Shown in pieces: positions 22,854-61,699 of a stretch of DNA of 64,000 nt (positions are counted from its first letter, which is position 1; each line of letters starts with the position of its first letter). This stretch comes from Convolutriloba macropyga. Taxonomy: Eukaryota. The stretch spans positions 27,094,001-27,158,000 of the forward strand of contig NC_134472.1 of the NCBI RefSeq assembly GCF_964194025.1, written 5' to 3'. Both the position numbers and the translations under genes were made by a program. The notes beneath the pieces were generated by a model, which saw only the letters and a program-made list of their open reading frames with translations, was not told where the DNA came from and made no database searches.

Positions 22854-22925
22854 CTAATATTATCTGCGAAGCAGTTTGGTAAACCACGAACAAAGTTCGT
22901 TCACTGATAATTTTATCTATTCAAA

Positions 22926-23561: not shown

Positions 23562-23979
23562 GGATTTAGTAGAAATATAACTGATCGGTGTAACCGCTTC
23601 GGGGATAAATTAATTAATCCTAGTTGGCTAAGTCCTAGAGCTGTAAGTCCTTTAGTTATTAACCAAACAGAGGAAAGTTGTTCATGTAAATACTATAATT
23701 TTGTATCATTTCTTATTAATAATGGAATAAATATAGAAAAAATAAAAGAAAATATAAATTTATTGAAAAGTATAGATAATTTGAAATAAAAAGTATAAAA
23801 AAATTTAAAAAATATCAAAAAAGAGGGATTCACTCTTTAAGAGCGAAAAAGAGCGATCTTTTCTACTGGGGATCACTCCGAATAAGAGTGAATCACTCTT
23901 AAAGAGTGAAATGTAAATTTTGCTTTGATTTTTTGATTTTTTTTGTTTTTATTTTGGATTTTAATTGATTTTTTTATTG

Positions 23980-24121
23980 AATTTAGAGCTAATATATAGT
24001 AGTGGATAAAACAAGGGATTCAAAAAACAGTAAAATTTGGCCCGATTCGACATGCGCGATTAGCGTTAGGAGAAAGGGACAAATTTTACTGGTGGTTGAA
24101 TCCCTTGTTTTATCCACTACT
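23980..24121. repeat. Right TIR, containing a 124-nt hairpin (23998-24121)
   Basis: 23998-24023 AGTAGTGGATAAAACAAGGGATTCAA is the exact reverse complement of 24096-24121. Confidence 0.95.
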
Positions 24122-34837: not shown

Positions 34838-36523
34838 ATGTCTTCCCCAATGTCGGTGCTGAAGTCTCATAGACGAATGCAAAATCACAACCCAACCACT
34901 GCCAGACGGAGCTCAGATGATCCGCTTAAACTGCCCGAACTGAGCGAGAGAAGTAGGAATCTCTACGGTCGCAATTACCACTCTGGATCTGAAGCTTACA
35001 ACTTCGCCTCGCCGAGAAAACAAAATAGTGACATCGATATGCCTAATCTACTTTGTGACTATACAACTGTTGATATCGCAAACAGAGAACCCACGCCCGA
35101 TAGCTTAGATAAATTCATAGCAGATTATGTACACAATGAGAGTCCAACAAGCAGGCTGAGAAATTCCTCGAATGGGCTCAAAATGTCGCCCAGATCGAAA
35201 GTGAATGGAAACAGCAGTTCTTACAGTCCCTCAGCTCCGGATATAGCTTTGATGACTTCTATGGCTTCTCGATTGCGCCAGGTTGAAAGCCAACTGCAAC
35301 AGTATTCACGTGAAATAATTGAGAAAGATCTGAAGATAAAACAACTTGAAGAACGTCTGAAAACTTCAGAGCGTGAGTTGGATAAGGTCAATGAAGTATA
35401 CTCTAACACAAATATAGGCGTAATGCAGAAAAAATGTGAATCGCTTCAAAAACAAGTTGATGACATGGAAAGTTTCCTTGAAGACTACGGGATGATCTGG
35501 GTTGGAGAGAACCAAGAAGAAGAACAACTGAATGACCCGGATTTATCAAGCGAAGAGAACCCAGGGTTGGGATCTCATAATGACTGGACACCGGCAAACT
35601 CGGTCGATATCTCGAGAAGGATTCCGTTTGATCAGATTTTGAAAGGAGTCCGTGATTTGAATGTTCTGGTGGGCGATGGAATAGCGAGAGTTTCTCAAAC
35701 AAAAACCGGAGCTACTTTCAAGATTCCAGAACCAATCAATCTGGAATTTTACGCGGATGGGTTTATTCTTTTCGAGGGTCCATTTCGTAAATATACAGAT
35801 GAATATTCAAATGAATTTATTCGAGATATTCTAGACGGATATTTCCCCTCGGAGCTTCGAGAGCGTTATCCAGATGGTATCCCGTTTGCAGTCAAAGACC
35901 ACAGGGATTCTTATTTCCTGGAAAGTGAGCAACCGAAGGAATTGTTTCCAGGTTCTGGCCACAAACTTCTGCAAGACTTGGACTCACGGGTTGTCAAATC
36001 TGGCTCCATGAAAGGAAGGAGGAATAGTTTGACATCGAAGGACTTTACAAGGAAGCTTCCTTTGTCTGTTGTGAAAAATGGAAAAGTCATTGACATTCGA
36101 AGTGATATTGAAGCTCAACTAAATCCGAACACTGAAGACCCCGAACAGCCAAAAACTGCTGCTTCAGCATCTGGTAATGGTGTAACAGTTTTAGCCACTA
36201 ATTTTATGAAGAAAGTGTACGAGTTGGACCCACAAGGAGAGGACACGTCAAAAGTGGATCCAGAGATCATAAAAACAGTGTCAACTCTGAGAATCCGATC
36301 TGCTTCCGGACAGAACTGTTTTATTGCCAAAATGTACCACGACGAAACTATAGGGGATCTGAGGAACTACCTACATGCAATACTGCATGAGGCGAAGATC
36401 TATGACATGGAAATTATCACAACTTATCCCCGCAAGGTAGTCCACGATGACAATTCTCAAACATTGCTAGATGCAGGGTTGACACCAACTGCAGTTTTAA
36501 TGCTGAAGGAACCAAAATTGTGA
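34838..36523 (+). CDS. UBXN11: UBX domain-containing protein 11 (coiled coil, SEP, UBX); intronless CDS
   Basis: QVDDMESFLEDYGMIWVGE; SEP FYADGFILFEGPFR...FIRDILDGYFPSELRERYPDG; FPGSG; C-terminal UBX (TYPR..TLLDAGLTPTAVL); first ATG at 34838. Confidence 0.88.
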   Translation: MSSPMSVLKSHRRMQNHNPTTARRSSDDPLKLPELSERSRNLYGRNYHSGSEAYNFASPRKQNSDIDMPNLLCDYTTVDIANREPTPDSLDKFIADYVHNESPTSRLRNSSNGLKMSPRSKVNGNSSSYSPSAPDIALMTSMASRLRQVESQLQQYSREIIEKDLKIKQLEERLKTSERELDKVNEVYSNTNIGVMQKKCESLQKQVDDMESFLEDYGMIWVGENQEEEQLNDPDLSSEENPGLGSHNDWTPANSVDISRRIPFDQILKGVRDLNVLVGDGIARVSQTKTGATFKIPEPINLEFYADGFILFEGPFRKYTDEYSNEFIRDILDGYFPSELRERYPDGIPFAVKDHRDSYFLESEQPKELFPGSGHKLLQDLDSRVVKSGSMKGRRNSLTSKDFTRKLPLSVVKNGKVIDIRSDIEAQLNPNTEDPEQPKTAASASGNGVTVLATNFMKKVYELDPQGEDTSKVDPEIIKTVSTLRIRSASGQNCFIAKMYHDETIGDLRNYLHAILHEAKIYDMEIITTYPRKVVHDDNSQTLLDAGLTPTAVLMLKEPKL

Positions 36524-39957: not shown

Positions 39958-42566
39958 CACCCAAAAACAACCTCCTTTGAAATAAACTTGTAAGTTTTAT
40001 AGGCGGCGGCGATAACTATTATCAACTCACTTCTGTATCTTTTTCCATCTGTATTTTACGGCACGCAAGTCTATTTCGCAGCTATTCCGGCACTCTGCCG
40101 GCTATGTTTATATAGTTTTTATTAGTTTTCTCAAAATGCAGTTGCCTCGAAAATCATCTGCATCTTTGCAAGGTTCACAGCTTTATAAAGATTTCAAAAA
40201 ATTTTCTGGTTGTGTGACTGCTATTTTGAAATACCCATCCATTTAAATTAAGATTGACGCCCGGACTATCAGCTGGCAACTCCACTGCCTCCCATTGTTT
40301 TCATTGAAATAGCTGACAATTTTTGATTTATATGCAGTAGCAAAAATGAAAACGAAATTGAAAAAAAAATGTTCAAAAATAAAAACCTAAAATTGTATTT
40401 TACTCCTTAAATTCTAAAAAAAAACAGGTAAACGGAAGCGTTTAGTTTTATTAGTCATCTAAAAAAATGTTTACGTCTATATGATTGCATTGCATTCCGA
40501 AGCATACGACTGTTTGTAGGGACTGTTTCTTGAAAACTTGATGTTCTTTCTGGAAGTTTATAATTCTTTTGTCACTGGAGGTTTGTTCCCTTGGAATCAG
40601 TTTTTCCACAAGAGAATATTACAAGTTTGTTTGAAAAATTTTGGTTGTCTTCAAATTGATTTTTTTTGCAGAATTACTTGACAAAACGTACCATTTGGTA
40701 GGACGTTTCAGTCGGAGTGTATATCTAGGGGCTGCACTGATGCCTTACAGTAAGGCATTTGAGTCTTATACACAAATAAACAATTTTTCAACTCGAGTTT
40801 GGACTCAAACCGATTATCGTTAAAGGTTGCGAAACGAAGTGACATGAAGTCTTTATGGCGACATCAAGTTTTTTGTAATTCCAAATTTTTCCTTTTTAGA
40901 AATAGGCGATTCCAATTGTTTTGTGAGAACGTAATAGATTGCGGATACGGTAAAAATTACAGGTTTTAGAGCCCCCATTTTATTCCACTTTCTTGCGATT
41001 TCTGGCTCACGGGGAATTTTTTTCACCTGAATAGAAACATACTTTCGAAATGCAATTCTTGGGGGCGACACGGTAATGGTGACAGTATTCGACGGGGAGA
41101 AAGCTACAAATATTTGCATGTTGTGCCGCTCAGCGATTCGTTAGATCCATTTTTTTAATGACATGAGCGACAGTTTTCATTTTTTAATTAAAATTCTTCC
41201 AATTTTCCGGCAGTTTATCAATTTCTCAAGAAATTAGCCCATGGTATTTTTTCAAATGACAAAACTCAACCGTCCGAGACAAACAAATTTCTTTGGTAAA
41301 TTTAATTTCTTTAAAAAATTTCTTACAGCAACGAAAACTGTGGGTCACGGTATTGTTTCGGTTCTGTGGGTCAGCAACGAAAACTGTGGGTCACGGATCA
41401 TTAGACCTTTTCTCAAATTAATCAAGTTAACCTGTTAGATGCAATTCATTAACTAATTTGCAAGCTCTTATCGATTTTTTTTGGTTGCATAAGCAACCTT
41501 AAAAAGAATATTTTGTTTTTAAAACTGCAAAATTCTATACATTTTTTTTAAAGTTTTCATTGCCCAGCCTCATATTTCAAAAAATTTAACCCGCACTGAA
41601 ATACAAAAAATCTGAACGAAAAATTATAATTCCATTTCATTTGGAGTCACTAGTTACTTGACATAAATATAAATTACAGATTATAGGAAAAGAAATAAAA
41701 CAACAGACACTGAACACATATTAAGAACAAGCACAATTGTTTGCGCAATAAAAAAGAAACGAGCAATAAACGAGCAAGAACGAGCATTAAAAAATGTTTT
41801 AAAAAGAAATTTTGAACAAATCTTTTGAAAGCAAGTTCATCGCCAGTTTTTTGTCTTGTTAGGGGTCAGTAATTTTTGACGGAGGAGTCCATCTCAATGT
41901 TAAGAAATTGGAAAAACAACTACTGATGGTAATGTCAGCTTGTGTGCCTTCTCGATTTAGTTTGGCTTTTTTGGGTTGTTAGGGGGGCGGGGCGGGGAGG
42001 GGGAACGATGTAGTAAAAAACCGTCCTCCATCATAGATACCCAATTACAAATAACGATGGAACCGTTAACGGCATCACAAAATCCGTATCAATGTCCTGT
42101 AATATATCATTCATCTTAAGGAGAAAAATAGTTGAAACTGATTGGTCCCTATGCTGTCCGGTCAGCTGTTGAAGTAATATCTTAAATTTGTGAACCACCG
42201 ATAAAAGCACGACAACAAATAATCTGGACCCAGTGCCGAGCATGCAAAAAAGCGTTTCTATGAAAAAAGAGGTTCAAGGGCAAAAAATATGAAGGGAACC
42301 ACCCAACATTGATCTGAGAAATTAGTTGGTATTTGATGTTTTTGAGATGTAAAGATGTATAGATTTTTCAAAAAAAAATTGAATGGATATTGTGCAAAAA
42401 GTGTTTTAGCGCAATAAACATGGATCAAAAAAACTCATTATTGGCAATATCAGCAGCATTCTATGCTTTAAAAAACGTAACTGCTGCAAAAAACTGTGCA
42501 CACAATAATTGTGCTGAAAGTGGGATAAGGCAGGAAGTTGGGAAGTTTCAGCCTCGTTTACCTTAT

Positions 42567-43049
42567 TGTAAGAACCTAAAAAAATTTGGGTAGTATTCCT
42601 TGGAAAAATTCCTTTATATGGTATATATAATTGTCTTTCTTTATACGGTTTTTATTTGTTGTAAACTTTTACTAATCAACAAACCTCAATGTTTGAAGTA
42701 AACTACATTTCCTGTGCTAACTACTAGAGTGTATTTACTATACAAATTTATATCCGGAGTTTATGTTTATTGTAGTATTGTAAAGCTATTAAATATATGC
42801 CTTGTTTATTTGATAGTAAAATCATCAGCTAGAATATATAAATCACTCAGAGCGATTGAGGACAAACTCAAATTAAGCTGTAATAAGTAAATCTTCTTCC
42901 CTTAGTTAAGCGAAACTAAAGATCTTCTTTTCTTTGTACTTTGTAACTGTCGGCCCTAGCATTTCGAATTCCTTGACCGCTACCGTCCTGAGGCCTCTTG
43001 TCCTGATTGTCGGATAAAATTCCTTTTTACCATGGAACAGGCTATTAGA
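42567..43049 (+). repeat. 5' LTR
   Basis: TGTAA...GGCTATTAGA; collinear with 55947-56471. Confidence 0.9.
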
Positions 43050-43061
43050 TGGTGACAGGAG
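43050..43061 (+). promoter_or_regulatory. Primer-binding site TGGTGACAGGAG (tRNA-Leu-like, tentative)
   Basis: Immediately follows the LTR and starts TGG; identical 12-mer follows the LTR at 63922. Confidence 0.8.
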
Positions 43062-43699
43062 CAGCGAGAGTTATAATACGAACAAAATGTTTTGAAAAAC
43101 GTTGATCGCTATTATGTTCCAAAAATTTTTTGAGAAATTATATTTCGTAAACGGAATTCAAGATATAGAATTCTCAAAAAATCTTATTGGTTTTGGCGAT
43201 CCACATAAATCAGAGACGTCCGCAGAAGTTCATTATGTTTTTGTATATCAACAACAACTTGTTATTACTTTTCTAGGCCTTACCAATACTAAAAATGAGG
43301 TAATTGCAACTAGTTCCTTTGATAGCCAGAACAATTTTGAGTCAGCATTTGTTAAAGAGAGAAGCTCATTTTGTCATGACAAAAACAGTATTTGATTCTC
43401 CTATTTAATAGTCATTCTTTTTTATAAACTTATTCTTACAGTTAATCTTATTAATTTTACAGCTCCTGAGGCAGAAAATGAGCAAGTGACTTAGTGATGA
43501 GAGTGGAGATCAGTGGAAAAGTGACAAGAGTAGATTAAAGAAGTGATACTTTGAAATCGGAGCCTAGAAACAGAACTGAGGTGAACTTAAACTGATTAAA
43601 AACAGCAAGTTAAACCACTGGTGATATTTTACTATTTTTTAGCTAGTGCTATTCTTGTGCTGTATAGTAATAGTTAGGGGCGCCCTGTAATCGTTAGCA

Positions 43700-44881
43700 A
43701 TGGCGCACGCGCAAATCACAGTAAGGCCATACTCTGGAACAGAAGAGGAGGACTTCAACGAATTTGAAAACCTTTTTCGAGGATTTGTAGCAGTTTCAGG
43801 AATAAACAACACACAACAGCCGAACATTCTACAACTGCACCTTCGTGATGCAGCTCTTAAATTCTTTCAAAACCTAGGACCCGCCACGCGAGCCAATTTA
43901 GATGGCTGTTTCACTGCACTAGGAGATCAATTCGCTAATTGAGATTTGCAAGAATTAAGTGTTTTGAAGCTCGAAAGTCAACGTTTTGACTCGAAAACAG
44001 ATACGCCTGAAAACTTGCTTGTAAACCTACAATCGAAAGCCTTAAGAGCATACCCTGAGCCAATTTTACCAGAGGTAGCTCCACTAAAATTCAACAGGAC
44101 TTGATCCCGCACCTGCTGCTGCAGAACAGACAAGATTTGACAGAGAAACTGCAACAAGAGATGCACAACAGCAGGCTGCTGAAATGTTCAGGAACGCGCA
44201 AATTAAATGAATTTTCATCAAAGCAATGCCCGGATGGCTACAATCAGAAATCATGGGACGACCAGCAAACACCAGTCCATGATTTACGCACTTTCGCACG
44301 ACAAAAAATGGCTGTACGAAATGTGTCGCAAACAAGACTACCCAGAGGATGGCTTCAACGAAGTAAATCAAACAGTTAGTAAAAAATTGGTAAACGCTCT
44401 CAGCAAGATAACACAAACACAACAGTCATTTGAGAAAAGGCTTCAAGACTTGACTAGCAAACCGGATAGCCACCAGACTAACCCTTCAAATAGTCAGTTA
44501 ACACACTCCATTCAAACCCAACATAGTGAATCATCTTTCGAACTACAAAAATTCACACAAAACAGACCACTGTACCCGGGCTACCGAAGATTCAATCGAT
44601 CGCCATGGCAAATTCGAGGACGATTTAGTAACTCGTCTACAAATTTCCGCCCGAGATTTCAGCAAAACATTAATCGCCCGAACGGACAAAACTACATTCA
44701 AAACTTAATGACAAGTTACAATTCCTGTACACCTAAGGAGCCGTATATCCCAGCAACTCAAACTAGCAGTATATTTTGCTATAATTGTGGATACCCAAAC
44801 CACAGAGCAAGCCAGTGCGCCCGACGCGGTCCACATCCTCAGAGAGGAACTGCCTTTCCCTTTAATCAACCAAAACAATGA
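43700..44881 (+). pseudogene. gag: gag, with stops and frameshifts
   Basis: MAHAQITVRPYSG..EDFNEFE..LHLRDAALKFF; CCHC knuckle CYNCGYPNHRASQC. Confidence 0.85.
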
Positions 44882-44996
44882 GTAAGCCACTAATTCGCTA
44901 AAAACCAGAAAAAATCATTATATAACATCAGATAATCAACTAAACGTACTTGAACTTAATAATATAAACCCAAAGTCAGCCCAGATATTATCTTAT

Positions 44997-47900
44997 GTGA
45001 AATCAAAATTTTTACCAATTATTCCTATAGATACAGGAGCGTCGTGTGCAAAGTTCATTTCTGAAAGCCAATGCGCTGAGCTTGGAAAATACGCTAACGT
45101 AAATATTCAACAATCTCAAACAATACCGAAATGGTCTAAAGTTAAAATAGCCGGAGGTCAACTAATGCAAGTAAAACATGAAGTTGAAATAGAATTGAAA
45201 CTGGCACATAAACCATTCAAAGAAAAGTTCCTAGTACTAAAAACAGCAATTTCAATAACTCTAGAAAACCCTTTCTTTGTAAACATGACATTAGTATTTT
45301 ACCGGCAAAAAAACATAATGCAAAATGATGATTTATCAATAACAACTAACGAAATAAATCCCCAAAATGAGCCAGGAAGTCTTGTAAGGTTAAAAAAAAT
45401 TCCAATCTATACTACAAAAAAAAAACAAACAATAGCAGCAAGTGAACAAATTATGATCCAATGTGTACCTTTGCTAATGATTCAAATGATTTGGAATCAG
45501 TCAGTGGAGTGGTTACGCCCAACGAAAGGTTAGAACAAGAACTGGATATTGCCTTTACGTCTTGACTAATAACAGTCGGGAAAAGAAATGTAATGATCTC
45601 AGCACTCAGTATTACCAATCATGATATCATTTTACAACAAAGGAGCGACAGAAGTCGGAAAATTTTCATTGCTAACGCCAGAACAAGCAGATAAGCTAAC
45701 ACAAACTGATCCGCAATTTAATGCATTAGCGCGACTCAGAAACCCAGATGCAACAATTGCAGAAATAAACCAGTTAATTGAAGATGAGATAAGACGAGGA
45801 AAATCACAATCAACTGGAATTCCAACAGAATACCACAAACTATGGAACTCCCGAAACTTGTGAAGATCCTGAAACACTTCCAACATTGCAGAGACGAATT
45901 TACGACGAAATTTCAACTAATGGTTAGAATTGACCCTATCACTAACCCCACCGATAAAGAAACATTTCTGTCTAAATTTCCATGGCATGGCTCAGTCCTA
46001 CAAGCTGAACAACGAGAATTAGCAGAAAAGCTGTTATTGGAATTTCATGACATTTTTGCAAAGCATAGATTCGATGTTGGTTACAACACAAACTAAAAAT
46101 CAAGTTAAACCCCGAGCATGATTTGCCCCTATATGCAGAAGTCCCCCGACTCCTATCCTCTTAACGGATGAACTACACGTGGAACTTGCCCTAATGGATT
46201 TCTAAGGAATAAATACCACATTATCCCAGTCACGTTACAGTAGTCCTTTATTCGCCCATCGCAAGTAATCTGGTAAACTCAAAATGTCATTAGACCTTAG
46301 GCGAATTAATCATCTTTCAAAAAAGAACGACTACAAAAACTCTAATTTCCCCATCTCAAATATGCCAGATGCTACGAACCATTTTGCGGGGAAAACCTTG
46401 TTCACTAAACTTGACTGCTCGCAAGCGTATCACTGCGTTCAAATGGCCGATAACAACCCAGAACAGTTGCTTGCTTTCAAATTTGTGTCACACACATACG
46501 CCTATAAATGTCTAGCTGAAGTACTCAGCAAGTGACAGGGTTTAGCTCTTTCATTCGGCACTACCTTGACTCATAACTAGCAGCACACCCCTGTACTCAG
46601 TTAATGGACGATATAGGCTGTGCAGTCAAAACATTCGATGAACTGATACCGACACTGCGACAGATATTCGTCTGCATTCGGAAATCAGGCTTAAAAACTT
46701 CACCAGGTAAATGCTCAATCACTACACAACGCATGCAGTTTCCTGGAAGAGTCATAACACCAAAAGGGATTTCACCAGAGAAAGAGAAAAAACAGAAATT
46801 TCTCAAACATTTTAGAATGCATCGAACATTAAAACAAATCAGACGAATATTTGCATTTGCTCAATTTTTCCGAAATTTTATTCCAAATCTTGGCTTGACT
46901 TTGCTTCCGTTCTATAAGCTATTAAAGAAGGATACCAAAACTGAACCGTCAAAAGAACATTATGATAGCCTGGAAAAACTGAAAGCAAACTTCTTAGCAG
47001 CAACTGAAACGACACTAGGACTTCCAAAACCTGGTCTGAAGTATGTCCTACTACGTGATGCAATTACTTACGGCGCAGTTTTCGTTTTAGTGGTCGAAAA
47101 TTACCCCGTTAAAGGCTATGAAAGTCAAAAATTTACGATCCAGTTTCCTTTGGATCATACTTATTCAACAAAAGTCAACTCAAATTTTCCACCTATTACA
47201 AAAAAATTTCTGGGACTTTACTATGCACTAGAGAACTTCGCTCATTTTCTATGGTGTTCGCATCACTCAGTGCTAATTTTAACCAACAACAAAAAATTAG
47301 TGCAGTTTTTCCAATCGAAAGTAATCCCACCAACATTGTGGAACTATTTGGACCGATTATTATCTTTCAACCTTGTGACTGCACATACACCAGGGAAAGC
47401 AAATTATGCTGCTGAATTCCTCTCTCGAATTCAGACTGACAAAAACGCGTGCCTTAGACTTAAAATGAAAGATAAAATACCAGTAACAGAGATAGAAATC
47501 GACACAAAAGCATTGACACGAGATGTGGAAACAAACAAAATTTTAAAGGAAATAACAACTGTTGCTGAATTGACCCCAGAGATTATCAAACAACTACAAA
47601 AGATAGGCATGTACGACGAGTATATGCAAAAAACCCAATTAGACAATCAAATAAGTGAACTTTTTATTCCAACGGTTGCAACGATAAATGCAATGTGTTT
47701 CCCAAATCCGGAAGATATACTTGAAAATATTGTCAATAAACAACACACCCAGTTAGTCTCAAAAAAGGAGCAGAACAAAGATGACAACATCCGACAAGTC
47801 ATACAGTGGAAAAAAGTCTTACACCAGCAAACATGAGATATGGTTCAAAATGCCTGAAAAATTATTTTAAACAATTGAACCGCTTAGTTATTGAAGATGA

Positions 47901-49500
47901 AATTTTATATCGACTTTTCCTCAACGACGTCGCTAAAAAAGAATTTGAACAATGTTGCTTGCCAAAACACCTCTGGAAGGAAACACTCTATCGAATACAA
48001 AATTCTCAAATAGCATTGAAATTACAAGAGTTCCGAAGACGCTTTTTTCCCTGGATTTACAAAACATCTTATTGATTTCATCAAAAAATGTTTTCCCTGT
48101 CTGCAGCTAAAACAACTTCGAGCTAGTTCGATAAAACCACCGTTATAGCAAATATCTTCACGACAGTCATTTCCTGGAGATATGTTACAAATTGACCTTG
48201 TAGGGACATTTAACTCGCCTATATAAAAGTATGTCCTTAGCGATATTGATGTGTTCACAAAATATCTTTTCGCAGTACCCCTGACTAACGGCATCGCAGA
48301 CACCATTGCAAGAGAACTACAGAGCATTTTCTTCGATCATAGTTTTCTGCCAACAACAATAGTCTCGGATCTTGGATCAACCTTTGTTTCGGACTTGATG
48401 ATTGAATTTGCCACAATATTAGAAGTGAAGCTTAAGCATGCAACCTTGAAGCATCCACATACAACAGGGGCGGTCAAAAGATTACACGGACCCTTGAAGC
48501 GTATACTACGGTTGAAGACAGACGAACGATGGACAAATTGGCATATATGCCACCAGCCACTTTTATCCACCATACATCTTATCATACTTCCATCGCATGC
48601 TGCCCTTCAACCTTGTTCCATGGCCGCGAACCAATTAAACCAACTGTCCCGCGATTTGCACGAGCTAACAGGGACGTAATTGGCATTAGCTCAATCTATG
48701 TAGCAGAACTACAAGATGCAATGCAAATAAAATTCGGAGAAAATAAACTCAGCCGTTTGGATTCATACCATCGCTACCGAAGTTTTTATGATGAAAAAGC
48801 ATTAGCGCACCCATTAGAAGAACAATTCTATTGCCTGCTATTGACGTCAAAGCTAACAAAACAAAGCGAATCAATTGGGAAGGCTAAGAAAAAATGGATA
48901 CCACTTTACAGCTTAGAAAAGGTACTGACAATTTCTAATTACATTGTCCACAAAATTGGAGTAAACTTCACACAATGTGTCCACAGGATTAGGCTACGAC
49001 CAGTGAAAAAAAATCAAAAGCTGTTGAAGGTCTCGAGATTATCGATTCATCAAACTTTGTCCCCGACCCATCAAGAAAATACGGCAAAAGCGAGCCCGAG
49101 TTATTTGATGACTATGTGCCAAATCTGTTGGAAAGCGAGTTAAAAAAAAAAACCCAAGTTACACCAATACCACCAGCCGAAGTTAGCCTATCACTTGCTT
49201 TTGCACCTCCAACACGTCACCGGTACTATCACCACCTGCACTAGTAGCATTACCACAACCCCCCCCCCCCCCCATAGCAAGAGTTTTATCAGTTCCTTCA
49301 CCGGTAACACCTAGAGTTATTCAGCCACTAAATTGGAGAGAGATGGCACCAACAATGGAAAAAAAGTCCCAACGAAGAGCCACAGGATACGTCACACAAC
49401 TTTGAAGATCAGAACGAGACTCCAATACCGGGAGTATACGACAATAGGCCACAAGAAACGGACAAACGGACTTATCAGTTGGACCAATAACAAGATCAAA
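44997..49500 (+). pseudogene. pol: pol (protease, RT, RNase H, integrase), fragmented
   Basis: IDTGA; LDLRRIN, KLDCSQAYH, LMDDIG; RH LRDA...HTPGKANYAAEFLSR; IN IDLVG, DVFTKY, IVSDLGS. Confidence 0.92.
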
Positions 49501-49859
49501 AACAAGGAAAAACGTGTCTTTCAGTAAAACAAAACAAATATGACGTTATACCCATTGCGACGATCTCGCAGTACAGTTTACAGCGTCACTTAGTAAATTT
49601 ATAGCACCCTCTTTAACAAAAAGCTTGCTCAGTACACTTTCAACACCAGAAAAATGAGAGTGTAAAAAATCTTATACAGGAAACCAGGAAAGACAAGGCC
49701 CCTCAGTGGAAACAAAGAAAGAGCGTGTTCAAGCAAGTATCAAAAAGTATCAGGCAGGAAACACTACTATCACATCACAACAACCAAGTACAACTAAAAG
49801 CACAAAAAGAAATACAATCACAAAAATCAATTTAATCAGGCCAGAACCACAAGCACAAT

Positions 49860-50273
49860 TCCTCAAGTTTTCGGGCAACCCGAACCATGCACTTTACTCA
49901 TATGCATATTGCTCATCTAACGACCTCATTAAGAACAAGAGGAACGCTCGTGAAAATGTCTATTGCTACCGTAAAGGCATTAAATGGCCTCAATTACAGC
50001 GCACTCTACCTATTGGGTCAATTCTTCCTCATTTTGACTACTATAATAACAAGTTTATCTTCATACTAATCACTATAAACTGCATCAACGAACACCCCAG
50101 TTATTACGCATTTTCCATGACGCTGCATAATTTGAAAAATTTGCCCTGGGAAAATCAAATTTCAAACAATCATCCCAAGACTAGAGAGTAACAAAATTGA
50201 GTTAAACCCTTGCTCTGTTTTACGACTGATTATAAGCGTTTTTTCGGACCTACCCATAAACGTATACTACTAG
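49860..50273 (+). pseudogene. TARG1/OARD1-like macrodomain downstream of integrase (frameshift at about 50165)
   Basis: YSYAYCSSNDL...PIGSIL...FIFILIT....HPSY..F...L..L then (frameshifted) TIIPRL....L....V..LIISVFSDLPINVY; collinear with the TARG1 motifs. Confidence 0.65.
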
Positions 50274-51699
50274 GACGATTCCTACATGTCGCTCAACAAT
50301 TCTAGTGATAAAAAACATTTCAAAATCAAAAAGAACCAAAAATCCAATGTTTATAACGAAATTCGCAAAACACCAGATTCAGGCCTCATTTTTCTGTGTA
50401 AAATCACTGATCATGGCCCTTAAACACCGATAAAAAACTACCTAGCGTCTATTAATATTTAGTAGATAGCTTCTTTACACATCTGATACCCTAATAGCGC
50501 AGAGAAAACCTCAAAAAAGAAAACCTCAAAAAGTTCAGAGAAAACCTCAAAAAACGGCTAAAAATAGGCCTAAAATTGCTGCAAATATACCACCGAAAAA
50601 TGACCCCAGACCAAATACCGCCTCCAAACATTTGCATGGAGCATTGCCATGACCCTTTTGAGAGATCTACTAGGGGACTTTGGCTAATTCTCAACAGTTT
50701 TGCAAAATCGAAATTCAAAATTTTGAAAAATAGACACAAAAAATGCCCAGTTTTCGACCCCCCCCCCCCACCAAAAATTTTCTCCGCCACTAAAAATTTC
50801 ATTAATGACAGACCCTAAATTTACACCTCCACAGTCAATTTCATTGTAGAGGAAAACCTTTGGGACCATTCTGAAAGGTCCAGAGTACACCACTTCGTGG
50901 AAAATTCAAAGTATTGGCCAAAATTTTTAAACGTCAAAAATTCAAATTTGGTAGCCTTTTTTAAATCCAAATTTCTAACAATCAAACATGAAAATTGAAA
51001 ATATCTGGAGGTTAATGGCTTCCAACTCAACATAGCTTTCGATTGATACGATTTTGAGCCTTCCACGTAGCTTCAAGACAGTTCGCGAACGGCTAGAAAA
51101 TTCGGTCGAAAAACTTGATAAACTCAAAAATCGAATTTTGAGACAAACTGCTCACTATCAACTCAGGAAGGACCACTGCAGCAAATTAAAGCCCCCTATA
51201 AAATTGATTTGCATATGTACTCACTTTATAATTAAATAAACACAGCTTTTGTCTGAGTTATAGTTTATTTAGGAGTGACACAAATTAACCCGTCAAAGAC
51301 GCTTTAAGTTCTACTTTCAGTCGATCGACCTTTACAAGTAATTATATTAACAAAACACGCATCCTTCGTGCCTAATTAGCCACTAAATTGCCACAAAATT
51401 AGCTCATGCACTACTCAAAAGATCATGCAGATGCATATAACTACCACAATGGATACTAAATAGCCGAAATCACTACATCTAAATTAATGAACAAAATTGA
51501 TGAAAATCACTTACTAACGCCTAGTCATGCAGACAAACTAGATCATGGTTTACCAGGCGACTTATCTGGCATCTTCTTAGTTAGGTTGGCAGCTGCTTGC
51601 GCTATAAATAACAAAAATAGACATTAAATTATGTTAAACAGCACACAAAACAAAGCAAATTTGCTAAATTTTCGCATTTAAACTTGAATATTCACCTTT

Positions 51700-52643
51700 T
51701 CTCAATGCGGTCTTCTTCTTCTGACTTTTCCTGACATTTTGCAGATACTCCCACCTTTTCTAAATCATGCCTTGTGCTTTCTTGGTCTTTTTTACGCCCC
51801 CACTGCTCAATTCCCGCTTTAACAAATCCCCCGCATCTCCCCCCAAATTTTCCACCAGTTTACCCTGCCGCCTCGGTGACAACTCACGTACCCGTGACAT
51901 CTCCTCCCGTTCTACTCCAAAGCCATAATACCTGTTCACACTATCCATTACCTCTCTATTTTCTCCCTTAGTTCATTTCCATTCGGCAACAACTCATGAC
52001 CCCTCCAGAGTTAATACTGCGTGTGCCCACAAACTAGGTTGCACAATCAAATTGCCCCCTCCAAAATGGAACCAAAAATGCTTTCCCACAATTTTTTCTG
52101 GCGGTCTTTTACGCACCAAACCTCGGAACGCGCCAGCAAACCTCACCGATTGGATTAGCCTCCTACTTTAGATTTGGATTGTGGCATACAAGAACACTTT
52201 CTTTCCGAAAGCTAATGCTGCCACCGATTTGTCCCCTGTAGTTTCTATGTGCCCTTTCGTGAACCACTGCCGCAACTGGAGCTACCCCCCCCCCCCTCCC
52301 GAAAACACCCCGTCCGAACACTCGAACACTCCAACCGATATATATGGCCCATCCCCAACCTGTTCCATGTTTCCCCCAATGACCTCTCTGTCCACTCTTT
52401 ATCCCTACAGCGTTTGAACCTCCCTAGAAACCCATCACTGAACCTAAACACCTGCTCCTCCACAAATACCGGAATCCTAAAATAATCACCATCTAGCAAC
52501 TCCTCCCGACCTCCATCCCTTACCAACTTCAACAAACCCGCCCATTTACGTTTCCCAACCCCTGATGCCGTCTCCACTATTCTCCACCCTCTTTCCCTCC
52601 ACTTCTCCTCAACATCAAACTCCTTCACAAATGCATTCATCAT
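51700..52643 (-). pseudogene. Antisense JmjC-domain 2OG-Fe(II) dioxygenase (KDM2/KDM7-like motifs), with stops and a frameshift
   Basis: One minus frame (52266 to about 51985) reads WFTKGHIETTGDKSVAALAFGKKVFLY...FHFGGGNLIVQPSLWAHAVLTLEGS*VV; HxE at 52251-52243 and distal His at 52023-52021. Confidence 0.75.
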
Positions 52644-52950
52644 TCAATCTGAAATTAAAGGCACAACTCATTACTCACATAAGAACAAATAAATTGTTAA
52701 CACACAATTAACCTCCCCGAAATTTAACATCTCTCATGCTCTAATAACAATCTACCCTGCAAAATATTCATGCTAGCACCCGGAAAAAAAGATTACAACA
52801 AACAGGTTAGCAAAGTTCCAAGTAAAACAACCAATTATATACTAAATAAACAATCAACATCTAAACAAGGCAGATGTACATAACACTAAACTCAACTATA
52901 ACAACTAAAACTAACATCAAAACAACATCTATAAGAATCAAAAACAAAGC

Positions 52951-53361
52951 TCAGAATTCATCCTTTTCAACCAATACAACACTTTCCTCATTTGCCTCTC
53001 CGCCTCCTTCTTTCACGTCTTCCTTTGACCAAGGACAAATCAAGTAACAACTGACAAAGGCACGCAGTAAACAAATACATATCATGAATGCAAGGCTCCA
53101 GTAAACAATGTTGTCAATCACGAAACCACCATCTCCAACATCTCCCATATCATCACAAATCGGCGCCCTTTTTGCCCACACTTCACTCCCCTCCACATTA
53201 CTCCCATTTTTACAAAATCGAATCACAAAACTGAAGAAAAAGCTTTTGCAACACAAATCATCTCTGAAAGTAAATAAACACATTGACAACACATATACTT
53301 ATATGGCACAAAATTTATTATTCTCCTTCTTCAAACACGACGGGGAACAACTATTGAACAT
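52951..53361 (-). pseudogene. Second antisense ORF, Cys-rich with a TM-like segment
   Basis: ATG at 53361, one internal stop, IVYWSLAFMICICLLRAFVSCYLIC followed by an acidic tail. Confidence 0.3.
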
Positions 53362-53558
53362 TGTTCAATAAACTTAGAAGGCACTGCCAAAAACGGTATT
53401 CAATCATAAATTAAAATAGCAAAACCAATGAAAAACAAGAACAAAAGGCAAATCAATTACTTATTAACCGGTCGACAAGCTAGCACAGCTAACAATAAGC
53501 ATCAGATAATAACTTGCACTAATAATTGATTTACTAGAGATTTCACCAAAAAACTTTT

Positions 53559-55562
53559 ATGCTTAACTTTAAAATGCGAAAACTCAACGTACTAACACTC
53601 TTCCTAATATTTTCGAACACATCTTGTTTGTTAGAACAAGATTTTGACGAATATTTATCAAAAGGAATACTATTCATCAAAAATGCAAAAATCTTGTTAG
53701 CAGAAAAAATTTGTGAATGTCCAGTTTTTGATACCATTCCCCCCACTACAATTTCACCGCAAAAGAAGCAATCGAGGAAACTTTGCGCAAACTTTCGAAC
53801 ATGTGGAAAATACCCTCAGTTTTCTGTCCAATTGATTTCTCCTCACAATTCAATACACCAAACGACCAGTTCAATGTAAACTGGCTCATGGACAAAATTC
53901 AAAGCGAAACGCTCGAAGCAAAACAAACTGTCAAAAATCTTTGAGCAACAACGTCAAAATTTTAGCAGAAAACCAAGATAAATCCTTCCGAGACCTCGTG
54001 GAGCAGCCGTTGTAGCAGCAGCTGCACTTGCCGGAATAGGCTTATTTGGTAGCAGAGTAGCAATTGGAATGCGGCCTATCGGGCAAATTCGACCTCTGTC
54101 AAGAAAGCGCTCGGAAAAATGCCGAAAGCATTGACCGCCTAAACGAAGACGCTTCACTCCTAACAGATTACGTTCTGGAAGTTGAGAGCAAGTCCAACGA
54201 AAAATTGTTTATAATTTTAAACGAGCTCGATGAAATCTCTAAAATGCAGAAGACAATGTAAGTAACAAAAAATAAGAATTGGGAAATCATTGATGAACAA
54301 TTCGAAGTCTTTCAACATAATTTCCATGTTCTCCGCGACTGTAATCAAGTGCTTTTCTCCATCCAACAATTAAATTTCAACTTTGCCACCATTGCCTGTG
54401 CTCTATGCAGATATAAAAAGTTGCCGATCAGCACTTTGTGCTTACAACATCAACATTTTAAACTCGATCCCAATTGTGTTGGATAAAAGGCTACCTATGT
54501 CGTTAGTACCTCGCGAATCACTTCTTGCTATTCTTAACTCTGTATATGATGGGAAGAATATGGCATCGAACCGCCTGACATTAGCAATACCAATACAAGA
54601 TCTCCTATCCTATTACGACTCTAAACTGATTCGAGAAGTGTTGACAGCTGATCAGGGACTCTTACTAACATTGGCAATTCCGTTAGCGTCAAGCCAAACA
54701 GCCTTCAAAGTATACGAGTCAAATTTGATACCTATGCCGCAAAAAGGTCAAGAAGAAGCACTCCAATGGCTCACCGAAAGAAAATATCTTGCTGTACCAG
54801 AACATTTTAACTGTTTAGGCTCATCCCGATACGGTATTTGCCATCAGACAATAGAAACGAACTTTGCCCAGTCTTCTTCTCTGGACACTTTGTTTTTTTC
54901 CTTTGGCTATAACACCTTTAACAGTCTGCGATACACAAAAAGTACTCCTACCAGCACAGGAAAAAGCAAAAAATCTTGGGTACGGTATATGGTTCCTCAC
55001 ATCAGCGTGACCGGCATTTACACTAGGGGAAAACAGTGTCAACAATTCTAACGTGCCGCACAACAAAGAGTACCCCGGATGCACAATATGCCTGATAACT
55101 CCAGAATGTGGAGCCCAATTGATCTCAAAATTTGTCAAAATTCGACCCGATCTCCAAAGTTGCAATAAAATTCCCGCCAAGCGCATTGGAGTTAAGTTAT
55201 CTGACCCCTTGGAGCACGTAATTGGCGCTGTACCCGATTTAAACGACCTCCCATATTTTGAAACAAAAACGGAGGCGAACATGCAGCTGATTAGAGAAGT
55301 CAAAAAGGAACTCAAATACGGAATAACTCTTCTTGATGAAACCAAACTCCAAACAATAGCAAAGCCGATAGCATACAAAATGACATTGCTAAAACCCGAC
55401 CTAGTTTCCAAACTTGAGACCTATATACCTATTAAACTGTCGTTAATTCTAACAATAATAGTTTTCCTTGGAAACCTACTTCTACATGCGTTGGTTAATT
55501 TCCTCTTCCACCAACTTGCGATAGTCCGCAAATTTACAAACAAATTTTCAGCGCACCATTGA
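53559..55562 (+). pseudogene. env: env: class I (F-type) fusion glycoprotein, fragmented
   Basis: Signal peptide MRKLNVLTLFLIFSNTSC; basic site plus fusion peptide RPR-GAAVVAAAALAGIGLFGS (about 53991-54053); heptad region; Cys-rich ectodomain; TM LSLILTIIVFLGNLLLHALVNFLF. Confidence 0.8.
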
Positions 55563-55932
55563 TGAAAACACTCGGCCAACCAATCCAAGATCAAGAGCGT
55601 CATCCAAAACGAACCTCAGCCACTTGGCAACAGCTTCCGCAGCATTCGGAGCACAAATACTAGGATCTAACACGTCATTATCCCAAAAAATTGTAACAGG
55701 ATCAACAGAAAACCTTGAATGCCAACGAGGTGCACCTCTTTCAGCGATTTCACCGGTAGAGCAGACGGTTCGCAGAGCTAACTAACTAATTTACTAAAAA
55801 AAATACAAAACATCTTATGGGCTATTTTTTTCATCAATTATTGTTATGTCAAAAACTTTTGGCGAACATTTCAGTGGCTAACTTTCATTTTTATTACTCA
55901 TACTCTGTAAAATCTTTTTTCACCAAAATTTC

Positions 55933-55946
55933 AAAAAATAGGGTAG
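55933..55946 (+). promoter_or_regulatory. Polypurine tract
   Basis: AAAAAATAGGGTAG directly before the 3' LTR TG. Confidence 0.7.
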
Positions 55947-56003
55947 TGTAATTTGATTATTACCAATTGATTATTATCCCTTGAAAAAATTCCTTTATAT
56001 GGT

Positions 56004-56057
<54 letters not shown>

Positions 56058-56471
56058 CTTTCTATATACGATTTTTATTTATTGTAAATTTTTACTAATC
56101 AACAAACCCCAATGTTTAAAGTAAACTACATTTCCTGTGCTAACTACTAGAGTGTATTTACTATACAGATTTATAACCGGAGTTTACGTTTAATGTAGTT
56201 TTGTAAAGCTAATAAACATATGCCTTGTTTATTTGATTGTAAAATTATCAGCTAGAAAAAATATAAATCACTCAGAGCGATTGAAGACAAACTGAAGTTA
56301 AGCTGTAATGAAATGATCTTCTCTTAGTTAAGCGAAATTAAAGAGCTTCTTTTCTTTGTACTTTGTAACTGTCGGCCCTAGCATTTCGAATTCCGTGACC
56401 GCTCCCGTCTCATAAGCTTCTTGTCCTGAAAATAGGAAAAATTCCTTTTTACCCTGAAACAGGCTATTAGA
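55947..56471 (+). repeat. 3' LTR with a (TA)n expansion at about 56009-56052
   Basis: TGTAA...GGCTATTAGA followed by TSD CTTAT. Confidence 0.9.
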
Positions 56472-56530
56472 CTTATAAAAACAGAAAACGATTGCTTAAA
56501 TGTTTTGTTGCTATCCTGTTGTCATAGCTG

Positions 56531-57550: not shown

Positions 57551-58951
57551 CTATTCTTTATCAGGCTGCGTAGCTTCCGTAGACTTTTCAGACTTGTTGG
57601 CCGCGTTGTTTTCTCTAGCAAAGTTAATTATTTCGCTTCTGTTAATCACAAAATCCTTTTCGATTAAATGATGCGGAACTTGTTCAATTTCGCAGAGTAG
57701 TTTTTCCCGAGCTGGGGGCCGTCTGGTGGCTCTTTCCTTCGGAAGTGGTCTGGGAATGAATTCAGAGTCGTAAGTCGTGAATCTTCCACTGAAAGGGTTC
57801 ATCGGCTGTCGTCTACTGGCATTGGGCACGATAGCTCTCGCTACTTTTCCGAGGTTGTAGTTGCATCCATGTCTTGTATAGTTATCTTGTTTTAAAAGTT
57901 CTGGTGACTCCGGGTTTGTGAATACACGGCCAGTTGTAGTTTCATAGAAACTGTTAGAGCGCTGAAGTTTAGTTACGTCAGCGGACTTGGACGCGTCACG
58001 TTCGGCTTTGAACGCCGACTTGATGTTAACACCTGGTGGTAGACCGAGGTAGTTTTGATGGTATGTTGACGTTGTTTTGCCCCGAATCGCCGACTCAATA
58101 GTCCGGTCCCCAAATTCGGGCAACTGAGGAACCATTAGACCTAGAGGTTGACTTTTGGGCAATTGGTAGATCATGAAGGACCTTAAAGGATGCGGGTTGT
58201 TACGTCGGTGGCCGCTGCCGGATCCGGATCGAATTGGGGCTGTTCTTGCCGGCTCTTTCTCGTAAAATTGGGTACTGTATGTTGAAGTGTAGTGCTTCCG
58301 CAACTCACTTAATTCGTCAGAAGCACTCGGGTATGCAGAACGCGGTCGCACAATACTAACCGCAGTCATTGGTCGGGAGAATTGACGGTCGTATGTTGTC
58401 TCGTAGGCATTCAAAAGAGCAGAATGATCACGTCTTAAAATTGTATCACTCGAACGACTAGCAGATTGTGCTCGGTTAGAGCCGAGAGGTGTCTTCACTC
58501 GAGATGAAATCGGGCGATTGTCGCCAGTCGGAGGCAATTTGACTACTTCATTTTCTGGCTCACCGCCCCATGAAGTAACTTGGACGTCATTTAACAGAGA
58601 AGCGCAAATTTCTAAGCACTTTCGCTGGTCTTCGATTTTTGATAGCTTGTCAAAGTAACTAAGTATATTTCTGGCATTAATTGCGTTTAAATCTCGTCTT
58701 TCGCCGTGTTCAAGAACAAGTTTTCCTTCGAGGTAAGTTTTGAGGAGTCCCAAATGACTGTCATCGCAACTTGACAGGACTTCAAAGAATTGGGATTCTA
58801 ATAGGTCCAGAACGTCTCCAGCTTGCTCTGTTGTTTGAAGGACATTAAATTCTTGATTCCGTGTAACAATATCGGATAAAAGTTGCTTTCCCGATGACGT
58901 AAGAGGGTTTAACATTTCCCGATTCGTATTCGGGTCTTCAGTGGACAACAT
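57551..58951 (-). CDS. TEX26-like protein (putative ciliary microtubule-associated protein)
   Basis: Repeated (S/T)TY..(Q/E)F motifs (YETTYDRQF, STYSTQF, STYHQNY, TTYDSEF) and PELL...RHGCN.....AIVP, collinear with TEX26 as recalled; first ATG at 58951. Confidence 0.6.
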   Translation of the reverse strand: MLSTEDPNTNREMLNPLTSSGKQLLSDIVTRNQEFNVLQTTEQAGDVLDLLESQFFEVLSSCDDSHLGLLKTYLEGKLVLEHGERRDLNAINARNILSYFDKLSKIEDQRKCLEICASLLNDVQVTSWGGEPENEVVKLPPTGDNRPISSRVKTPLGSNRAQSASRSSDTILRRDHSALLNAYETTYDRQFSRPMTAVSIVRPRSAYPSASDELSELRKHYTSTYSTQFYEKEPARTAPIRSGSGSGHRRNNPHPLRSFMIYQLPKSQPLGLMVPQLPEFGDRTIESAIRGKTTSTYHQNYLGLPPGVNIKSAFKAERDASKSADVTKLQRSNSFYETTTGRVFTNPESPELLKQDNYTRHGCNYNLGKVARAIVPNASRRQPMNPFSGRFTTYDSEFIPRPLPKERATRRPPAREKLLCEIEQVPHHLIEKDFVINRSEIINFARENNAANKSEKSTEATQPDKE

Positions 58952-61699
58952 TACGAATATTAATATTTTGTAACTTAACTTTTGACCATTTAAGAGCAGT
59001 GTTACAAAGTAATCAGCATTCAAAATGTGTGCGTTTCAAATGTAAGCTCAGCAACAAGGCTTAAAGCTTTTGTAACAATTTTAAAATTGTGCTAGTAAAT
59101 CATTCAAGAGCTTAAAAACTAACGTGTTTTGTATTCTCGTTATAGTATACTACAATTGTCATTTTATTTTTTGGCCACGCAACTTTGGTTCGACGAAAAC
59201 ACGTTGTTTTGTTGTCATAAAATCAGTAATTAATTCATGCATTAAGAAGCAATAATAATAGTACTTCAGAAATCAAGCAGTTATGAAAAATGTCTCGAAA
59301 GTGGTTTGAGTGCTATATTAACAGTTACAGTGTTTTGTAGTTCAGATAAAGGATCCTCCCTTGCAAAAAGCATGGTGATATGTCTTAAGGAACTTAAAAA
59401 AGGCAGTCAAAACTAATGATTATTCAATCATTATCAAAAACTTAAAAACCGCAAAATGTGTACATTAGTTAACAAAAACTTATTAGTTAACCGCGTGAGT
59501 TTTTCAAACCAAAAGCTGGCAAGATTTGGTAAAGAGTTCCTTGCAAACACGCAACTATATCTCATCTACATTTGGCATTAAAAGGAGATTGCATTACTCA
59601 GAACCAATAAGAGCAGCTTACAAGACAAATCATTTGACATGCAAGTTCTCATAAGACCAACATTTGATTAGAACATTCTTACAAGTTAGCTTTTTTGCAC
59701 GAAAATTGCAGGATCAAATAAAATAAACATCCTGCTCACGGCTTCCAATGCTTTGTTGCCACCACCCTACATACTTGAATTTTTGGCAATATACTGCCGC
59801 AGCTAGTTTACTTATCATATGAAGAAACAAAAAAAATTTCCAGTGCACCCAATGGAAACTGAAAAGCTTGCACCAGAGAAAACTTTTATAAAAGTTATTT
59901 ATGTAAAAACAAAGGTAATCATTTTAGAAGACAACTGCAGAGAATTTGATTTTAGAAAATATTGTGAAATTGTTGTTCACAATTCATGAAACCGATTTCT
60001 CACTGTAATCTATGATGACAGTCACTTCAATCACCGCATTGGGCTTTTGCTGACTCTGCTTGTTCTGATTCTCTTACGTGCTCTTCTTGATTTGCCTTGT
60101 GGAGAGAGATGAGGTTGAAAATGTAAGATATTAAATGTCAATTATAGATCTATTAAAAATATTGTCACTTAGTTCGTTTAAGGAGACAAGAAGTAAAACG
60201 TGAATTAAAAAGAATTTTAAAAAAACTGCGGACTGGTTGGGAATTGAACCACTGCGCCAAATATGTGCAGATCAACTGACAAGTGCCCTAAAAGTCGGTG
60301 TAACCACTGTAGAAATGTGCAGTTGACAAGGTAAGTCTGTATTTCTCTCATAAATTAAAAGAATAAGATTGCCGAGACCTTAGAAACGAGAATGTAGAGA
60401 TTTAGTTATTTAGTTATGTAGTTAGTTAGCTAATTTGAAATAGCTAAAAGAAACAATAACTAAAAATAAAAGCAAACTAACCATAAAAAGTAAAACTTTC
60501 AAGGAAAAAGTCATGAAAAGTCAAACGATGTACCAGAGAAAACTTCGAATTTGGACCCTCAAATAGCGGTACATATTAAATAGCAGCCAAGTTTGAGGCA
60601 TCATTTGAGGCACCAGTAAAATATGTGGCCATTTTTGATGGTAAACAGCTGAACTTTTGAAGTTGACAACAAAAGGTTTCAAAATAAAAGTGTTTGTTTT
60701 TCCCCAAAAAGTAGAAAAAGGATTTAAAACGAATACGTTATATCGGATTTGCTGAAACTTGCACGATCAAATACGTAGCTGAACATGGCAAGATAGAGGC
60801 TCATATGAGAGAACAAGGCGAAAACGAGAGCCAAGCAATTTCTGATTATATTCATTTTTGACCAAGTAAAAAAAGCATTGAATGAGTACTCAACTGATCA
60901 TTACACATTATTGTCTACATCATCAGCTCGAGAGAATTTTTTTTGCCAAAAACAGCCTGATGTTGGTCAAAATTGCGCTTAAAGTGCCAAGGACAATGTA
61001 TCAAAAAATTTGTTTGCTGATTAAAAAACTTCAAATAAAAAATTAGAGAAAATTACATAGGTATCAATTGATTTTTCTCCGGTTCTAAACCTAGACAGGA
61101 CTACATATTAAAACATAACGCTTTACATTAGATATTAACAGAAAAAGAATTGAAAAAACTTTTTTGTTATAGAATTTATTAGACAAAATTGAAATTAATG
61201 TTAGCAGGTCCGTAAAAGCTATCTCAATGTAACTTATTTAGAAACTGTTACAAATTATTTTTTCAATGCATATTTGTTCGTGATAACTGGTGTACGTGCA
61301 ATCGTTCCACAGAAAATCTGTTTGCAACTTTACTTTGGACAGACCAAGAAAAAGTGGAAAACAGCCAAATCTCTCAAAAAAATTTTAACGGAGTTGCGAG
61401 TATTAGACGTTGCCACAAAGCATTACAAAAAGTGAATTCAAAACAACCATTTTTGGTCTACATTTTGTTTGTTTTAATTAATTGTGAATTTTCGCATTGA
61501 CTGAAACGTGGCAATTATTGTTGTTGTTAATGAGAACATACACAGAAACAAGCAGAACTTTCATTGACGAAAGAGAAATCATTGAGGAAACAGTAAAAAA
61601 AACCGGTTATGCCCGAAGAACACACAATAAATTCACCAAAAAAGAAAAGCTAACAGCAAAAAGGAATGAATGGGGAGCAGATAAAAAGATAAGGTACAC

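Follow-up and report, generated by a model that had tools for sequence, protein, structure and literature searches.

We analysed a 64,000-nucleotide stretch of the Convolutriloba macropyga genome (contig NC_134472.1, positions 27,094,001 to 27,158,000 of the forward strand; below, the window), in which a decayed retrovirus-like element occupies positions 42567-56471. A first-pass annotation made from the sequence had read this element as LTR-gag-pol-macro-[antisense JmjC, antisense membrane ORF]-env-LTR (LTR, long terminal repeat; ORF, open reading frame). This layout holds: all parts were found, the ends are exact, and the same target-site duplication (TSD), CTTAT, stands on both sides. The interval between the end of pol and the start of env is referred to here as the slot. 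The features are, in window coordinates:

42567-56471, plus strand: whole element, a decayed Ty3/gypsy provirus bounded by TSDs
42562-42566, no strand: left TSD, CTTAT, 5 bp
42567-43049, plus: 5' LTR, 483 bp, beginning TGTAA
43050-43061, plus: primer-binding site, complement of the 3' end of a host tRNA-Leu
43700-44881, plus: gag with a CCHC knuckle, broken (Pfam zf-CCHC, E 6e-4)
44886-50273, plus: pol (protease, reverse transcriptase, RNase H, integrase, linker, macrodomain), with stops and frameshifts
49850-50273, plus: TARG1/OARD1-type macrodomain, broken in this copy and C-terminal in the Pol of relatives (123 matches in the same genome)
50274-51663, no strand: non-coding 3' part of the slot, no conserved ORF
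51664-52643, minus: antisense JmjC ORF, class A, HIE near 52250 and distal His near 52023, with five in-frame stops and a frameshift (fold predicted from a relative)
52649-52655, minus: splice-acceptor-like TTTCAG, 5 nt before the JmjC ATG
52951-53261, minus: small single-pass membrane ORF, motif CC-x-NGT..W..C followed by a hydrophobic helix, frameshift near the start (family profile match)
53264-53270, minus: splice-acceptor-like TTTCAG, 2 nt before the membrane-ORF ATG
53271-53573, no strand: gap separating env from the divergently oriented antisense ORFs, a candidate promoter that lacks a TATA box in the window copy
53574-55785, plus: env, predicted F-type, broken (fold of a relative)
55933-55946, plus: polypurine tract
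55947-56471, plus: 3' LTR with a (TA)n expansion
56472-56476, no strand: right TSD, CTTAT, 5 bp

The element and its family

Classed by its Pol domain order (protease, reverse transcriptase, RNase H, integrase), which is that of Ty3/gypsy, and by its env, the window element is a Ty3/gypsy retrotransposon with an F-type env; its LTRs, tRNA primer site, polypurine tract and short TSD agree with the structure of this group. Named Pol homologs are at most 33% identical and cover short parts, and the close homologs are unnamed proteins. The two LTRs are identical at 428 of 472 aligned bases (90.7%), and gag, 43% identical to that of an uninterrupted relative, carries five stops. As the gag, pol, env, JmjC and membrane reading frames are all interrupted by stops or frameshifts, the window copy is dead. 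Neither its macrodomain piece nor its JmjC piece matched any Pfam family, and the identities of both were therefore taken from uninterrupted relatives in the same genome. Sequence matches of the broken JmjC to the Protein Data Bank (PDB) were dismissed as chance. Genes of the tRNA-Leu type, the primer type of this element, form long tandem arrays at C11:45156000-45211000 and C1:80691000-80726000, with 199 pattern matches genome-wide.

The two enzyme-like domains of the first-pass annotation were both recovered through these relatives, one as a JmjC fold (discussed below) and the other as a macrodomain, which in relative L037 matches human C6orf130 (OARD1) with an E-value of 1.2e-15. All 44 uninterrupted macrodomains keep a Lys motif and 37 keep an Asp, which we take to be the TARG1 catalytic residues (K84/D125 numbering). 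In uninterrupted relatives the reading frame of the macrodomain is continuous with that of the integrase, so that, by its sequence, it is a TARG1/OARD1-type domain fused to the C-terminus of Pol and not the separate accessory gene it had been taken for. It would travel with the integrase and remove ADP-ribose, its predicted activity. That the accessory genes target host ADP-ribosylation and histone methylation, as proposed in the first-pass annotation, is likewise a prediction. The extra sequence between integrase and env, estimated before at about 4 kb, measures 4.4 kb (from the end of the integrase core near 49200 to the env start at 53574), but its first 1.1 kb is Pol linker and macrodomain, which leaves a slot of 3.3 kb (50274-53573).

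In the env of relatives a hydrophobic peptide comes after an RxKR site. A model built for one of them (pLDDT 72.7) matched baculovirus F with E 1e-17 and also paramyxovirus F, and the PDB matches shown were all F proteins, with a best E of 1e-6 and low TM-scores. At the sequence level, PF12259 was found on 2 of 120 env homologs, and comparison with PDB gave one weak match followed by weak HA2 and F0 matches (E 0.025 or worse). We thus predict from the model that env is of the F type known from paramyxoviruses and baculoviruses.

A search of the whole genome (1.18 Gb) with pieces of the window element gave 123 matches for the macrodomain, 151 for JmjC and, for env, 150 scored of 1308 candidates. 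The census on which the counts below are based consists of 80 macrodomain-match loci (numbered L…), chosen by hand, with about 10 kb fetched round each; the 5' half was additionally fetched for 20 copies. An antisense JmjC is present in 53 of the 80 loci, and the small membrane ORF, which never occurs in the sense orientation, in 65. The order pol-macro, antisense JmjC, antisense membrane ORF, env is constant among the relatives and holds across env clades, and the distance from macrodomain to env is 2.4-5.9 kb in nearly all loci having both (the exceptions being one of 372 bp and one of 8.4 kb). LTRs are at least 99% alike in 9 of the 20 copies, at least ten copies show 5-bp TSDs, and the family has therefore been recently active.

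With these relatives gathered, the pol-env interval proves to belong to the family, as the first-pass annotation had proposed: position and orientation are kept in most of the 80 loci, and the genes are under purifying selection. The opposite case it had considered, nested unrelated insertions not shared among copies, does not agree with the frequencies just given, and the interval is neither single-copy nor bounded by termini of its own. Further decayed ORFs suspected in both orientations (e.g. 50498-50818) found no support as genes, since the sense clusters in the slots of the 80 relatives consist of an ORF of 106-170 aa that belongs to another subfamily and one that overlaps JmjC.

The exchangeable antisense slot

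Exchange of the slot between near-identical backbones is well supported. Copies L040 and L041 agree at 95% along pol and at 94% from the start of the membrane ORF to the LTR, with no blastn match over the 2.7 kb between, and the pairs L037/L041 and L037/L096 show the same pattern. When slot alleles were delimited at 78% identity over half of the slot, a single env clade of 23 copies (support 97 in a quick tree with many open nodes; env DNA 83-97% identical to L037) was found to hold 12 of them. In six copies whose macrodomains are 90-94% and envs 94-97% identical where measurable, the JmjC proteins are 26-51% identical in 14 of 15 pairs, with most values at 27-39%, and the membrane proteins 31-52% identical in all 15. 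The two vary independently, as L040 and L099 share a JmjC at 95% identity and a membrane protein at 37%. In a quick JmjC tree of 31 rows the split between classes A and B has a support of 98, and copies of the single 23-copy env clade lie on both sides of it. The gap between membrane ORF and env goes with the backbone (77-97% identical to L037).

Synonymous sites are saturated between JmjC alleles (pS 0.78 for L037/L082), against an env dS of 0.17-0.22 within the clade, and the alleles are therefore far older than the backbones that carry them; hypermutation was rejected as a source of slot diversity on the same figures. From what is known of retroelement biology, template switching during reverse transcription likely moves slot alleles between backbones, and many alleles would persist through conflict with host defence.

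Counting the window copy, the 81 loci comprise 17 with a class A JmjC, 31 with class B, 6 with class C and 27 with none. The loci devoid of JmjC fall mostly into one env clade (20 rows, support 100), whose slot holds the membrane ORF, often a 137-aa antisense orphan ORF (12 loci) and a 106-170 aa sense ORF (11 loci). For the 137-aa ORF the median ratio of nonsynonymous to synonymous substitution (dN/dS) is 0.14 over 30 pairs, and an Atlas search with it returned no match. Some copies have no JmjC or are missing most of the slot. In L045, L047 and L048, of the subfamily devoid of JmjC, the slot carries three copies of a non-coding repeat of about 180 bp with a palindromic core, spaced by about 1 kb. 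In the window copy, 50274-51663 and the JmjC stretch show about 80% similarity to a distinct family of decayed repeats with no pol or env nearby.

JmjC genes of this kind also occur beyond the family. Among 20 further JmjC loci, nine have env upstream of an antisense JmjC, one has integrase-JmjC-env with no macrodomain, two have the window layout and three lie beside SET and tyrosine-recombinase ORFs. The last (L051-L053, e.g. C16:5182000-5191900) form a repeated unit in which a convergent class A JmjC accompanies ORFs for a SET domain (Pfam E 6e-11) and a tyrosine recombinase (E 2e-4); the unit is possibly a Crypton-like DNA transposon with both a methyl writer and an eraser. Loci L056-L065 and L233 represent a second env-bearing gypsy family, in which a 143-aa sense ORF and an antisense JmjC stand downstream of env, with many near-identical copies and dN/dS of 0.19-0.48. 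At L054/L055 a class A JmjC is in line with ORFs of 186 aa and at least 726 aa, neither of which has a Pfam match, and tandem arrays of JmjC fragments were seen for class C at C2:27097000-27110000 and for the 5' part of class A at L071 (C6). Outside this genome, 370 representative proteins, all unnamed, match the JmjC profile; 120 of 153 checked are less than 60% identical to any fetched locus, and 28 of 35 long ones have both motifs. Neither viral contigs nor metagenome contigs with one homolog supplied JmjC relatives with a genomic context.

Predicted proteins and proposed expression of the slot

JmjC ORFs of the relatives encode stand-alone proteins of 355-412 aa. Across 15 sequences that are 16-51% identical to the first, W155, T157, H160, E162, H236 and E251 are invariant and K177 nearly so. 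The model predicted for a relative (pLDDT 89) has PHF2, ceKDM7A and KDM2A as its best structural matches (Z 14.2, rmsd 4.3-4.4 Å over about 250 residues), and the top five Foldseek matches are all ceKDM7A. The protein is thus predicted to have a KDM2/7-like fold with an HxE...H triad and a Thr and a Lys that bind 2-oxoglutarate, and would be a putative Fe(II)/2-oxoglutarate dioxygenase acting on methyl-lysine. Its likeliest role, as far as the model goes, would be to strip repressive histone methylation and so counter host silencing; as the methyl-lysine target, H3K9 is the foremost candidate, though with somewhat less than an even chance. The class C ORFs represent a second, shorter type of JmjC; HxD...H was found in 21 of 22 class C stretches, and the Pfam JmjC match of this class (E 7e-4) falls under the cut-off. 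All 16 unsaturated class A/B pairs, which are related to each other and include post-insertion mutations, have a dN/dS of 0.19-0.57.

Membrane ORFs of the relatives are 74-115 aa long and have one hydrophobic helix, and a CC-x-NG(T/S) sequon was found in 8 of 8 tested. Sequon and single helix together suggest an N-out single-pass glycoprotein, which may, with low confidence, act at budding or against a host restriction factor. The Atlas M2 score of this ORF is 0.83, under 0.9, and serves as a lead only. HTLV-1 HBZ is an antisense regulatory gene, and HIV Vpu and influenza M2 are small single-pass membrane accessory proteins, all of other virus groups; the comparison with the antisense genes and membrane ORF described here is one of kind, with no homology demonstrated to any of the three.

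Of 29 distinct sequences upstream of the membrane ORF, 27 have a T-rich acceptor of the TTTCAG, TTCTAG or TTTTAG type at most 32 nt from the ATG; the background is 403 of 5584 antisense ATGs (7%) and 139 of 4899 sense ATGs. Among 14 uninterrupted JmjC ORFs, ten have such an acceptor no later than the first Met and two more have it before a second Met, and all nine 137-aa ORFs listed are preceded by one. The host genome has 2612 matches to the leader exon of the acoel Symsagittifera roscoffensis and none to the reversed control; in the paper that prints this exon, 30% of S. roscoffensis genes are reported as trans-spliced. In four families resembling long interspersed nuclear elements (LINEs), the leader is joined to one first exon both directly and via a TTTCAG, TTCTAG or TTTTAG hexamer, which suggests that these hexamers serve as leader acceptors in the host. 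The idea that the 31 matches to acceptor plus exon are unspliced LINE copies was rejected, as all eight inspected have the leader upstream, so that two leader-capped forms exist. These dispersed LINE-like families (L235-L254) start with the spliced-leader exon, and such non-LTR elements may renew their 5' end by trans-splicing.

These motifs suggest a trans-spliced antisense operon. A promoter in or beyond the gap between membrane ORF and env would drive an antisense RNA in which the acceptor before each ATG takes the leader, so that one antisense transcript is likely cut into separate mRNAs by the host's spliced-leader trans-splicing. The internal bidirectional promoter suggested in the first-pass annotation for the point of divergence from env is a candidate. 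The antisense placement would keep the acceptors off the packaged genomic RNA. In four sequencing runs (contigs, type unrecorded), depth over the slot is below that over pol and env, a figure that does not represent copy number, and no joint at the acceptors was present among the matches listed.

Functionally, the element resembles a complex retrovirus that carries accessory genes. We give about even weight to the joint reading that this is an env-bearing Ty3/gypsy with a TARG1-type macrodomain at the end of Pol and an exchangeable antisense slot, likely leader trans-spliced, whose JmjC acts against silencing. Its extension is more tentative and falls clearly short of even: a complex retrovirus lineage with a trans-spliced antisense counter-defence operon (three JmjC eraser classes, a Vpu/M2-like membrane protein and orphan ORFs), shuffled under balancing selection, its JmjC pool shared with other retrotransposons and DNA transposons of the host.

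Several observations count against the joint reading. JmjC is dispensable, being absent from 27 of the 80 loci, mostly of one successful env clade, and its dN/dS exceeds that of env (median 0.10, 8 pairs), with the pairs non-independent. No histone reader is attached, with no PHD or CXXC domain matched by Pfam in the stand-alone ORFs, and the fold leaves the substrate unfixed, as JMJD5, KDM4A, KDM5B and JMJD6 follow at Z 13.0-13.5, near the best value. Sequence matches to KDM7/PHF2 are weak (best profile E 0.025), and the Pfam JmjC profile matches none of the 15 class A/B members, for which reason the family may go unannotated. As for expression, neither the class C JmjC nor that of the after-env family is preceded by an acceptor, the acceptors that exist fit cis-splicing equally well, and a genome search for leader-capped retrocopies of the accessory ORFs gave no match for the membrane ORF and eight for the JmjC-type start, none of them JmjC.

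On one hand, the JmjC protein might be an active dioxygenase with a non-histone target, working as a protein hydroxylase or arginine demethylase of the JMJD5, JMJD6 or FIH kind or modifying RNA as TYW5 does, which we regard as unlikely although a serious competitor. The closeness of JMJD5 (Z 13.5), JMJD6 (13.0), TYW5 (12.9) and FIH (12.7) to the best structural matches agrees with this, as do the missing reader domain and the very high allele diversity, which suggests a changing target. However, the KDM2/7 matches span about 250 residues including shared C-terminal helices, versus 191 for JMJD5, five of six profile matches are KDM7/PHF2, and a related JmjC adjoins a SET domain in another element. 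On the other hand, the architecture might be as described with the antisense genes expressed otherwise, either by cis-splicing of a transcript started in the 3' LTR, as in the antisense HBZ gene of HTLV-1, or by divergent transcription from the gap between membrane ORF and env. The acceptors would suit the former as well, and the latter is favoured by a TATA-like box (symmetric TATATA) in the gap of 3 of 9 relatives (none in the window) and by conservation of this gap with the backbone. No common antisense AGGTRAG donor was found, however, in five elements scanned, and the host leader system appears to use identical hexamers; we hold this alternative to be somewhat less probable still. The reading of the slot as passenger DNA, randomly transduced or inserted pieces from which the element draws no benefit, is very improbable and already largely refuted by conservation and selection: the resemblance of the window slot to a decayed repeat and the loss of JmjC or most of the slot in some copies speak for it, and against it stand the constant order and orientation across env clades, the invariant JmjC catalytic residues, dN/dS below 0.6 for JmjC and far lower for the 137-aa ORF, and the conserved acceptors.

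Related systems and neighbouring observations

The comparisons below extend as far as the available parts of the papers cited. The nearest described elements are the "ancient errantiviruses", Ty3/gypsy elements with F-type env (Chary & Hayashi, PMC13524379), which share the gag-pol-env order, the F-type env, tRNA-Leu among the primers and recent multi-copy activity; the window family adds the antisense pol-env slot of 2.4-5.9 kb and the C-terminal macrodomain, and does not have the three-ORF errantivirus layout, with env adjoining pol. The non-insect prefilter of that survey admits pol-env gaps of at most 1000 nt and would tend to miss such elements; its text, where available, does not contain the words macro, JmjC, antisense, accessory, acoel or Xenacoelomorpha, and the supplements seen hold no acoel or JmjC match.

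Other likenesses are more distant. Retand/Tat gypsy elements of plants (PMC11963269) share a long post-pol region with antisense ORFs, but the ORF there is TRP28, its function given as unknown, and the abstract does not speak of JmjC, env or allele exchange. An orchid gypsy with an AlkB m6A demethylase (PMC9289625) shares a captured 2-oxoglutarate dioxygenase and a proposed counter-defence role; it is, however, a recent capture of an RNA-acting AlkB fold, whereas the window family has a deeply diverged JmjC in an env-bearing animal element. Bdelloid LTR elements (PMC5408684) likewise have modular extra ORFs, across retroelement classes, and F-type env in one lineage. Their ORF3 is a single alternative ORF that encodes env, a GDSL esterase or a DEDDy nuclease, whereas the window family keeps env and has its extras antisense and exchanged within one backbone. 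Endogenized giant viruses of Amoebidium (PMC11244446) encode a reader-less stand-alone JmjC, also proposed to act against silencing, but theirs is KDM4-derived, contains introns and belongs to a DNA virus, in contrast to the KDM2/7-like fold of a retroelement. Epsilon-like endogenous retroviruses of fish (PMC4977317) share a macrodomain in a retroelement of another virus group. In the open-access literature (subscription papers and Repbase reports lay outside the search) no description of a JmjC-bearing retrotransposon or of an exchangeable slot was found.

Env-bearing gypsy elements have been described as plain gag-pol-env, and the present family is an accessory-gene-rich complex genome that arose outside Retroviridae. 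Should its JmjC proteins remove silencing marks, they would amount to counter-defence enzymes that act on chromatin and are encoded by a retroelement, with no printed precedent in the literature searched. LTR elements make up about half of an acoel genome (PMC9911081), and, under the same condition, JmjC erasers might help to explain this abundance. The slot is a natural experiment in which near-identical backbones carry different alleles, so that it is possible to follow the arms race between host and element one gene at a time and to assay the enzymes directly.

Elsewhere in the window, positions 9525-24121 hold an AT-rich Polinton/adintovirus-like element with terminal inverted repeats of 150 nt (87% alike), whose ORFs, judged by eye, resemble those for a protein-primed DNA polymerase, for capsid proteins, for a packaging ATPase and for a protease. 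Host genes, also assigned by eye, include a CDK-like kinase in exons at 3977-8988, a 584-aa ORF at 34769-36523 and a 494-aa ORF at 57551-59035. A tandem duplication of about 1.44 kb (26977-28920; 81-88% alike) contains a C-terminal integrase fragment.

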